A stretch of DNA of 64,000 bases from IMG/VR virus record IMGVR_UViG_3300019742_000001. The stretch is one strand, 5' to 3'. Source of the stretch: a virus. Taxonomy: Duplodnaviria > Caudoviricetes. Below, piece after piece: positions 1 through 3,000 of the stretch. Position numbers: made by a program. How positions within the stretch are numbered: the stretch's first letter is position 1; each line of letters begins with the position of its first letter.

Positions 1-3000
1 AATTAGATCAGCAAGATCAAGATCACCAAGTGTAGTTGTTTCACCAAGTTCTCTCCGATCTTCAAGATACACCAAAATGTTAAGTAATACAGTTAATCGG
101 GAACCTTTTATCCCATATTTCATTGACTGACTACTGGCGAATCCTACAAAACCTTCAACCTTATTGGGATTATATAGGAATTGGTAGTTTTCAACCACAC
201 CTTCCATCAAAGGATCTGCAAATATTACGTGTTCCATATTAAATGTTGAGAATAGAACGGACAGTGCATTGGAATCACCATCAGACATTAACTTGATCCA
301 CTCTTGGATAGACCACAGTTCAATGTCTACGTCATCCTTAGAGTTTTTTGTGTCATCGTCACCACTCTGATAACGGAATAAGTTGGGTGTTTCACCTAAC
401 AGACAAGAATCTTTCATTGGTAAGAAAATACCTTTGTAATCACTATCAGATTCAGGTGTTTCTGTGCCGTGAAGTCGTGAACCACTCTTACAAACATACA
501 ATAGTTTATGTGGAGCTGTTAATGCGTTACAATATTCAATAACTTTGTAATCACTCCACGTTGACGTATTCTTTGTCTCTACTCTTTTTCTAAAATCAAC
601 AGAACTTCCCATTGTAAATCCCTATCATCAGGGTCAACTAAATGCCCTTCACCAAGATCCATTAAAACACCACGTGCTCCGTGAAATTTTGCCGACTCAC
701 CTACACAGTGAGAAAACTCTTCATATAGATCAATATCTTCACGGTCACACTCATCATCACCATAGTATTGAGGGTCATCTTGCATCAGAAATCCCTCCTC
801 ACCAGCTTTTTCATTGTAATGTACATCATATACACCAAGAGCAAAGTCTTTATGTTTCTCTAACCATTCAAAAAATATTTCTTCATTATTCATTAATATC
901 TATCTCCATATTTCTCTTTAATAACTGCCTCAACAGTAATACTTTTACATTTGTCACAGTATTTAGATCCATTTGGTAAAGTTGATAGGTTAGGATTACC
1001 ACAATAAATACATCCTTTTAACTGACACGGTGTAACCATTATGAATCCCTCCCATCTATAAACTTTTGAGTTGTTCGTATTCTACTTCTTACATCCATAC
1101 ATGTCAACACTTCATTGAACACACAACCACTATCAAGGTTAATACGACCTTGGTCTTTGTTATCTTCATTGTATTTAATCATTTCATATCGTTCCATTGG
1201 TGTATGTCCGTGAACAATAACCCTGCCTTTCATTGGTGTGCCTTGTGAGTAAAGGAATTTGTCCCGTATCCATAACAGATCGTGTAACTGTTGTTCTTCC
1301 ATAGGATAGTTTGGATCTATACCAGCGTGAACAAACACAAACTCATCTTCTTCGTATGCATATTTAAGGTTATCATAAAAATTTTGGTGTGATTCGGGTA
1401 GGTCACTAAATGATAGATCACCTTCTATTCCAAGGTTATCACTATAAGAATCTAATGTTACCGTACCACCATTGAACATAAACATACTGTGGTCATCATT
1501 TGACATTCTATCCCAACCACCTGAATTTACTGATCTTTTTAGATAGTTGAGTAGCATACTTTCGTGGTTGCCCATCAAAAAGACACAATTGTACAGTTCC
1601 ATTAGTTCAATTAAATACTCAATGGTTTCGAATACTCGTGGACCACGGTCAATCATATCTCCAAGAAAGATCAAAGTGTCATTCGGTGTGGGTGACACTT
1701 TGTCAATTAAGGATTTCAATGTATTAGCGCAACCATGTACGTCCCCGATAGCAAGTAACCTTCCTCTCATTTCATAACTCCTTTTAAAAATTGAACTTTT
1801 TGTGATTTTTATAAATACATATAACAACCAATCATAGGAGGTTATACATGGAAACAAAATCTATAATTTATGGTACTCTATTAGGTGACGCTTACATACC
1901 AAAACCAAGGATAATAAAAACCAAGAGTCGTGGAGGTCAGAACAATAATCTCAGATACACCCATTCCAAGAAACAACAAGATTGGGCTTTATACAAGGCT
2001 GTGAGAATAAATATGCCTTTCACTGTATACCAACGAGACAGATACGATAAACGAACAGGTAAAACACATGGTTCTTTTGAGATAATCCATTCCGCTAATT
2101 CGTATTTTAATGATATTAGAGAGACATTTTACCCCAATGGAACCAAGATTGTTACCCAAGAAATTCTTGATGTTTTAACACCAGAGGCTATTGCTGTTTG
2201 GTATTGTGACGATGGTAATTTATATACTAACAAAAAACAATACCTTTGTCATCTTACCCTCTCAACCAATAGTTTTAGTGATGGTGAGAGGGCATTAATC
2301 ATAGATTATTTCAAATCCAACTATGGTCTTAATTTCAAATCAACAACTCAAGGTGCCATTAGATTAACTAACAAATCACAGGCTGAATTATTTCTATCAC
2401 ATTTTGGTCAATATATACCTGAATGTATGAAATATAAAACTCTGATTTGATCGCCAATGGCAAGCAACCTTCCTTTCATTTCATATCACCCATCCGTTAT
2501 CAACCAGTTTTACATTGTTAAAATATATTGATTTATAATCTTTAATCTTTTTTGTGATTTCAGGTGATCTAAGATCATCACCCAATGTTGTGTTAGGATT
2601 CAAATCAATAATCTTATATTTGATATCCTCTCCGTGAATCAACTGAATGAAATTACCACCCCTATCAGGTTTGATTTCAAATACATTAACTATACCAGTT
2701 TTTGTGACCATTATTAGTTGATTCATTTCAACTACTTATCCTTTCATCGGAAATTTTGATGTAGTCATCTTGGATCTCATACCCTATGTATTTCCTGTCC
2801 AATGATAACGCAACTTTTGCCGTTGTTCCACTACCCATGAACGGATCAAGAACAATTCCACCTACAGGACAACTTGACTGTATTGGGTCAATGATAAGTT
2901 CAGGTGGAAACACAGCAAAATGTGCTCCTTTGTATGACCTTGTAGAAATATCCCACACTGTAAACTTTGGTCGTGTTGGAACTTCCCCTGCCATTATACG

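Follow-up and report, generated by a model that had tools for sequence, protein, structure and literature searches.

A LAGLIDADG homing endonuclease gene between two copies of a metallophosphatase gene start in a T4-like phage: a probable cassette carrying a spare gene start

The DNA analysed here is a 64,000-nucleotide (nt) stretch of a virus of the class Caudoviricetes (Duplodnaviria; IMG/VR record IMGVR_UViG_3300019742_000001), in which a free-standing gene for a LAGLIDADG homing endonuclease is situated between two copies of the beginning of a metallophosphatase gene. The whole stretch is referred to as the window, and coordinates are window positions unless another locus is named. Nearly all genes in this part of the window are carried by the minus strand, along which a DNA methylase gene is followed by a gene for a protein of 81 amino acids (aa), a 10-codon orphan start, the LAGLIDADG gene in antisense orientation, a 77-nt spacer and the metallophosphatase gene. 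The window sequence is present in microbial-mat metagenomes, and the same arrangement was found, 100% identical, on contigs from separate samples, including one contig of 239 kb.

The functional metallophosphatase gene occupies 1039..1770 on the minus strand and encodes a 243-aa protein beginning MRGRLLAIGDVHGC, which is of the PPP type and similar to lambda phosphatase and ApaH. It matches the Pfam family Metallophos (PF00149) with an E-value of 9.4e-19 and 69 bits (cut-off 21.5), and its translation contains GDVHG, GDMIDRG and GNHE, corresponding to the PPP-type motifs GDxHG, GDxxDRG and GNHE. By sequence, its nearest solved relatives are ApaH, a metallophosphoesterase of the CthPnkp type (bacterial Pnkp type) and lambda phosphatase (1g5b), and homologues with 45-59% identity begin at the same residues. 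An alternative TTG start at 1857, which would give an open reading frame (ORF) of 272 aa, was rejected, as it lacks a ribosome site and overlaps the endonuclease start, and as the homologues begin at MRGRLL.

The beginning of this gene occurs twice, in the form of a direct repeat (D1) of 40 nt, at 1742-1781 and 2451-2490, with 33 matching positions; the copies are 709 nt apart. When window 1000-3700 was shuffled 40 times, no 40-mer pair matched at more than 27 positions. The functional copy (1741..1783, minus strand) comprises the Shine-Dalgarno sequence AAGGAG at 1778-1783, seven nt ahead of the ATG at 1768-1770, and codons 1-10 down to GAC at 1741-1743. The orphan copy, which we take as the native start (2450..2490, minus strand), has a Shine-Dalgarno-like GGGTGA and an ATG at 2477-2479, encodes MKGRLLAIGD (2479 to 2450), and is cut after codon 10, the GAT at 2450-2452 that specifies the Asp of the GDxHG motif. 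This GAT overlaps the endonuclease stop codon TGA (2448-2450) by 1 nt, base 2450 being the last of both codons, and past GD the orphan frame continues for 13 codons antisense through the endonuclease gene before reaching a stop. The two copies differ at 6 out of 30 coding nt, namely in R2/K2 and in five synonymous third positions of codons 5, 7, 8, 9 and 10, while the 9 nt preceding each ATG (TATGAAATG) are identical. The homology between the copies extends from about 14 nt before the ATG to the GD codon.

The gene upstream of the orphan start, at 2481-2726 on the minus strand (according to the ORF list and the gene calls on identical contigs), encodes the 81-aa protein, for which no Pfam match was found. 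Its stop codon (2481-2483) is 1 nt away from the orphan ATG, in the configuration TGA-A-ATG. Such coupling is the position expected of the original phosphatase start, and the 81-aa gene thus marks the gene order before insertion. Apart from this, the orphan start (2411-2479 on the minus strand, together with its continuation) keeps its ATG, a GGTGA-type ribosome site and the tight coupling to the upstream gene, and it could still give rise to a 23-aa peptide in which MKGRLLAIGD is followed by 13 residues encoded antisense to the endonuclease.

The endonuclease gene (1848..2450, plus strand) is antisense to all of its neighbours and encodes a single-chain protein of 200 aa. It matches the Pfam family LAGLIDADG_2 (PF03161) with an E-value of 3.5e-33 and 115.4 bits (cut-off 25), over profile positions 2-153 of 168, and both LAGLIDADG motifs, GTLLGDAY (D14) and WYCDDGNL (D121, D122, G123), each with a conserved acidic residue, are invariant among 25 relatives. 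The nearest solved chains, 6x1j and I-SceI, are single-chain enzymes, and judged by its sequence the protein belongs to an uncharacterised, I-SceI-like LAGLIDADG clade. In the divergent control spacer (1784..1847, plus strand), the core of the T4 late promoter, TATAAATA, lies at 1810-1817 on the plus strand, 30 nt before the endonuclease ATG, and is followed by the endonuclease Shine-Dalgarno sequence GGAGG at 1837-1841. The same motif is found 20-31 nt before the endonuclease ATG in four of the five cassettes with antisense organization. Its total count in the window is not above chance (9 against 7.4 expected), and it is the placement, rather than the count, that is informative: non-coding DNA makes up only about 11% of the sequence, yet seven of the eight coding-strand copies are intergenic; the ninth is the plus-strand copy before the endonuclease. 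The intergenic copies, distributed on the minus strand over window 20115-63858, are located 19-99 nt (five copies) or 188-234 nt (two copies) before the next gene start. Sigma-70-type promoters and terminators were not found above chance in window 1000-3800.

The window also encodes replication genes of T4 type, that is, a UvsW-like helicase (with a UvsW N-terminal domain), a family B polymerase and a DnaB-like helicase, in addition to a ribonucleotide reductase with class II (B12-type) domains and a NAD ligase. Together with the 239-kb contig, the replication genes identify the source of the window as a large T4-like phage. The placement of TATAAATA fits late promoters of T4 type in this microbial-mat phage (239 kb), and because T4-type replication genes are encoded and the motif is so strongly intergenic, late expression of the endonuclease is plausible.

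The initial annotation, made from the sequence of this DNA, had already proposed most of these features, and they hold on closer examination. The duplicated start with an orphan ending at the endonuclease stop is seen in the 33/40 repeat and in the shared base 2450, the functional copy has its own AAGGAG as claimed, the alignment of the 30 coding nt returns the six differences with five synonymous third positions, the LAGLIDADG ORF is indeed antisense between the copies, and the intergenic position of 7/8 coding-strand copies speaks for TATAAATA as a promoter-type motif in this phage.

Based on the repeat spacing, the inserted unit would comprise 709 nt (1741..2449), consisting of the endonuclease gene, the control spacer and the replacement start, and the uninterrupted allele can be reconstructed as the orphan copy joined to ...GTACATGG.... 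In our opinion, the unit is probably a selfish cassette that homes into the GD|xHG site of the phosphatase gene and brings along a spare gene start, so that no splicing would be involved, an interpretation for which the sequence evidence gives us considerable confidence.

LAGLIDADG genes are mostly borne by introns or inteins, and the insertion point inside a coding sequence would also be in agreement with a spliced element, in which case the 709 nt would represent a group I intron or an intein, and the mature phosphatase would arise by joining the orphan start to codon 11. Nevertheless, no Rfam family reached the gathering score in the window, and no group I intron appeared among weak Rfam hits up to E 10 in 1000-3000. 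The endonuclease cannot be an intein, since it is antisense to the phosphatase; in addition, its 200 aa match only LAGLIDADG_2 in Pfam, and no Hint domain is present. Only 77 nt lie outside the endonuclease ORF, and the complete ribosome site, ATG and ten codons at the functional copy make splicing unnecessary. Likewise, in related loci where the endonuclease is in the sense orientation, its stop codon overlaps the next ATG, leaving no room for a ribozyme core. Taking all this into account, we regard splicing as extremely improbable.

One could also suppose that slippage or microhomology duplicated the gene start beforehand, that the endonuclease landed there later, and that the differences between the copies are due to drift. 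Short local duplications are common to many genomes, and the identical 9 nt before both ATGs would fit a duplication within one genome. Against such an order of events, no duplicated start was found in the endonuclease-free relatives L004, L005 and L170, the orphan end abuts the endonuclease stop codon to the base, and related endonucleases occur in the same arrangement at other loci. Five synonymous differences out of six are not expected from drift in a dead copy; drift is unlikely to have shaped the stub, because five of the six changes fall on third positions (p ~0.02 compared with random placement). Hence, we consider a duplication preceding the endonuclease improbable, if somewhat less so than splicing.

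The most informative comparison of alleles with and without the cassette comes from the loci L007, which carries the closest endonuclease (76% identity), and L170, which encodes the same phosphatase protein as L007 and has no endonuclease. Their flanks are 100% and 99.2% identical, and the L007 cassette of about 619 nt is placed exactly between the stop codon of ClpP and the ribosome site of the phosphatase gene. This shows that the cassette was gained or lost between near-identical phages. Of the 6 mismatches in 733 nt between the two loci, four fall within 31 nt beside the cassette; three of these four hit the third positions of the adjoining codons 6, 7 and 8, immediately ahead of G9-D10, and are synonymous. 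The endonuclease-bearing allele is thus specifically altered in the codons that immediately precede GD. A separate difference concerns a gene for a zinc-ribbon-like protein of 47-48 aa (CxxC...CxxC), which directly follows the phosphatase gene in the window (893-1039, minus strand) and in L170 (1017-1160) and is missing in L007, otherwise 97-99% identical, representing a second small indel polymorphism at the locus.

Orphan stubs are also present in lineages in which the endonuclease lies in sense orientation. The endonuclease ORFs of L090, L094 and L172 begin with a phosphatase-like N-terminus ending in GD, with the junctions between stub and endonuclease reading MNKKQRLHAIGD|RQADLL... in L090, MKAREFVLGD|KGTEII... 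in L094 and MESKFVPRRIVAIGD|GNLLL... in L172. There is no internal Met before the first LAGLIDADG motif in L172 and L094, and a single one, immediately before the motif, in L090. A second phosphatase start overlaps the 3' end of the endonuclease, as MKTKKLFGIGDIHG in L090, ...RTFVIADAHG in L094 and MNSQFKPRRIVAVGDVHG in L172. In the latter locus the peptide PRRIVA(I/V)GD is conserved, while 8 of its 9 codons are changed at the DNA level, all but one synonymously. Accordingly organized structures, with a used and an unused copy of one gene terminus flanking the endonuclease and with mostly synonymous divergence between them, were encountered in the window and in L172, in both cases at the 5' end of the gene. 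In the endonuclease tree, the L090, L094 and L172 lineages and the window fall into separate, well-supported groups. As GD-ending stubs occur in separate lineages, the same break point, right after the GD codons, appears to have been used repeatedly and in both orientations.

Several observations weigh against the proposed homing cassette with a spare start. The closest relative, L007, has no stub and its cassette is cleanly intergenic; the stub is therefore not obligatory, and could be the scar of one irregular event. The third-position pattern, with five out of six differences, rests on 30 coding nt and is modest evidence. The identical 9 nt before the two ATGs suggest that both copies come from one lineage and not from a foreign donor, which complicates a simple donor/recipient story. 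Sense-form stubs are recognisable at the protein level only, as short similarities; around cassettes other than that of the window no repeats were detected at the DNA level. Finally, an endonuclease-free allele of this phage was not found, and the state before insertion is consequently reconstructed and not observed. The nearest phosphatase in 5.8 billion proteins is 59% identical, the endonuclease is present on all contigs read that carry the exact phosphatase protein, neither the phosphatase nor the 81-aa protein, used as queries against viral contigs, revealed an endonuclease-free allele, and contigs of four metagenome runs compared with window 600-3700 had no joint that skips the cassette. 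For the sense forms, no endonuclease-free alleles were found either, as searches with the L172 and L090 phosphatases returned identities of at most 53% or the same contigs.

If the stub were such a scar, the mobile unit would consist of the endonuclease cassette only, normally residing upstream of the phosphatase gene, and the stub would be an accident that is not carried on. The clean intergenic insertion that distinguishes L007 from L170 fits this explanation, as do the endonucleases of L095-L097, L010 and L011, which have their own starts and are without a stub, and illegitimate one-sided repair with microhomology junctions is documented in T4 (PMC2988022). A single accident is, on the other hand, difficult to reconcile with stubs ending exactly at GD in at least four separate lineages and in both orientations, or with the endonucleases of three lineages depending on the start codon of the stub. 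Moreover, whenever the endonuclease of this phage later homed into a relative sharing its flanks, the replacement start would inevitably be copied with it. For these reasons we find the accidental origin of the stub unlikely, although it deserves more weight than the two alternatives discussed above. A cassette that carries a spare gene start is preferred, and the reading given in the initial annotation is supported. Insertion without an intron at the GD|xHG junction, as postulated there, agrees with the GD stubs of L090, L094 and L172, with the restriction of the clade to metallophosphatase 5' ends described below, and with the missing intron and intein signals. The postulated recoding has a parallel in the L007/L170 pair, where synonymous changes in codons 6-8 are found only in the endonuclease-bearing allele, and the observation that would have spoken against the annotation, the same duplication in endonuclease-free relatives, was looked for and found in none of L004, L005 and L170.

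In regard to the mechanism that could generate such a structure, homing endonucleases typically target active-site motifs. The enzyme would recognise DNA situated some 30 nt into the gene, where the first metal-binding motif (...A-(I/V)-G-D|x-H-G...) is encoded, and would presumably cut alleles that do not have the cassette. Repair from cassette-bearing genome copies would then bring in the 709-nt unit, containing the antisense endonuclease with its own putative late promoter of T4 type and ribosome site, as well as a replacement ribosome site, ATG and ten codons. Since the replacement start is carried in the unit, the phosphatase gene would stay whole without splicing. The native start would persist beside the upstream gene as a dead 10-codon stub, which would mark the insertion point and probably also the cut. 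If donor and recipient share both flanks, the cassette would be inserted upstream and the first codons co-converted, resulting in the L007 type. If the upstream flank differs, the left end of the break would have no pairing partner and would be joined irregularly to the far end of the cassette, generating a stub that ends at the cut. First entry into this lineage may have proceeded through illegitimate one-sided break repair. Such repair, mediated by microhomology, gives endonuclease elements of T4 access to ectopic sites (PMC2988022, citing Parker et al. 1999). The resulting block of endonuclease and replacement start would be self-sufficient, homing into uninterrupted alleles of related phages and recreating the stub.

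That the 9 nt ahead of the ATG are the same in both copies suggests a right-hand junction formed in native sequence, near the GGAG/GGTGA microhomology of the ribosome sites. In that case, about 40 nt of native DNA would have been truly duplicated around the cassette in the original event. In the scenario of a homing cassette, the replacement copy would have to escape cutting, because, in terms of protein, the target is complete again in the functional copy, which must therefore be immune. The synonymous differences in codons 5-10 are the likely reason for such an escape. The changes in codons 5-10 of the window and 6-8 of L007 would fit immunity, but they could equally come from a diverged donor allele. 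In the window, L007 and L172, the Ala codon of the presumably immune copy ends in T, whereas it ends in C or A in orphan or endonuclease-free copies.

The association of this endonuclease with phosphatase genes extends over the whole clade. All endonuclease relatives with at least 42% identity are situated directly at the 5' end of a metallophosphatase gene, the loci with an endonuclease at a Metallophos start being the window, L007, L008, L009, L010, L011, L090-L097, L172-L174 and the P0127 contig. The phosphatases at these loci are only 24-62% identical. As a control, a hidden Markov model (HMM) profile built from 121 phosphatases was applied to 2.5 kb around each distant endonuclease, and no Metallophos gene was detected within 2.5 kb of about 150 more distant endonuclease relatives. 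Two forms of organization were observed. In the antisense form, found in the window, L007, L008, L009 and L174, the two genes diverge from a spacer of 48-77 nt, while in the sense form both genes share one strand, with the endonuclease immediately upstream and its 3' end overlapping the start of the phosphatase. The cassette thus appears to be a free-standing, I-SceI-like LAGLIDADG element specialised on phage metallophosphatase genes and confined to their 5' ends. Since related enzymes are found at this very site in many further phages, the cassette seems to exemplify a general strategy of gene invasion that needs no intron.

Two of these loci have additional peculiarities. In L009 (1812-2504 and 234-965), the endonuclease is located between two different metallophosphatase-like genes, the upstream one with a weak and the downstream one with a clear Pfam match, and a 41-aa membrane-like ORF separates the L009 genes. 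The endonuclease of L174 (1501-2226; P0126, antisense to a Metallophos gene) matches a database protein only if TAG is read as Gln, which suggests that the cassette is also present in a phage with a reassigned stop codon.

Regarding the surroundings of the locus, the DNA methylase gene lies at 2728-3609 on the minus strand, and the only matches in a phage reference collection, to P-TIM68 and to a marine virus, fall in this gene and none in the endonuclease. Window 1-12400 holds auxiliary genes unusual for a T4-like phage, encoding an RlaP-type nucleotidyltransferase, ClpP, adenylosuccinate synthetase, nicotinate phosphoribosyltransferase and an RtcB RNA ligase. In a seawater metagenome from 2023, contigs about 99% identical to window 615-1457, comprising the 3' part of the phosphatase gene and the following genes, indicate that relatives of the mat phage also occur in seawater; their coverage ends before the cassette.

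A central question in the biology of mobile DNA is how a selfish nuclease can invade essential coding sequence and leave its host alive; textbooks answer it with self-splicing introns and inteins. The locus presented here and its relatives would represent a splicing-free solution in bacteriophages, in which the element carries a spare gene start. We lean, with some reserve, towards regarding this as a third general phage route into coding sequence besides introns and inteins, in which an endonuclease is combined with a portable translation start and N-terminal segment; the sense form would also take the promoter, ribosome site and start codon of its victim as an N-terminal fusion, and the victim would restart from a start codon within the endonuclease 3' end. 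Searches of a paper collection yielded no account of a phage endonuclease that brings a substitute for the 5' segment of a gene, or of a LAGLIDADG clade linked to phosphatases. The target of the clade would be predictable, namely the stretch of phage metallophosphatase genes that codes for the metal-binding motif GDxHG, and the clade could serve studies of target recognition and as a source of new meganuclease scaffolds. If the proposed mechanism is true, it offers natural, matched half-sites for reading the recognition code, sensitive in the orphan and endonuclease-free sequences and immune in the replacement copies. In annotation, a short orphan start of a gene, or an endonuclease ORF extended at its N-terminus, can be the trace of such an insertion.

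Among known systems, the Seg and Mob endonucleases of T4 likewise reside in no intron or intein and adjoin a conserved gene which is presumably cut where they are lacking, and they resemble the present cassette in the presence/absence polymorphism between close relatives, which for the cassette is seen in L007 and L170, in the differing flanking markers, and in the late-type phage signals, putative in our case, from which they are expressed (PMC2988022, PMC2330249, PMC2790892). They are, however, GIY-YIG or HNH enzymes positioned between genes (PMC2988022), whereas here a LAGLIDADG gene lies inside coding sequence and its insertion is offset by a duplicated start.

In genes split by endonucleases, as at our locus, the endonuclease sits inside a coding sequence, there of phage or environmental origin, without an intact intron, and function is preserved. 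The mobE gene of Aeromonas phage Aeh1 splits nrdA. This endonuclease is pictured in PMC2988022, and in 'fractured genes' with split inteins both gene pieces are used (PMC2677866). The difference is that in split genes both pieces are used, through subunit assembly or trans-splicing inteins, whereas at the present locus a duplicate takes over from the upstream piece, which is abandoned. Integrative elements in the 3' ends of tRNA genes carry a replacement end and leave a direct repeat. With these, the phage cassette shares the restoration of the interrupted gene by a brought copy of the displaced terminal segment; they depend on site-specific recombinases and identical att cores, in contrast to the break repair by a homing endonuclease proposed here, with its diverged copies.

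The closest precedent is provided by the mobile ORF elements (mORFs) of fungal mitochondria with a replacement gene end, described in PMC3630166 (citing Paquin et al. 1994 for Allomyces) for atp6 of Allomyces macrogynus and for atp6, atp9, cox2 and nad3 of Glomus. There, a LAGLIDADG or GIY-YIG ORF moves together with a copied terminus of the gene that it invades, next to which the native terminus persists unused; the two termini encode nearly the same peptide, with their differences mostly at synonymous sites, and no splicing is needed (PMC3630166). The mORFs replace the 3' end of the gene, that is, the C-terminus, in eukaryotic organelles, whereas the phage cassette replaces the 5' end of a metallophosphatase gene and, as a consequence, must also supply a ribosome site and a start codon. 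It further differs from mORFs in having both an antisense form with its own putative promoter and a sense form fused to the orphan start. The analogous solution at the 3' end in fungal mitochondria suggests that the two strategies arose by convergent evolution.

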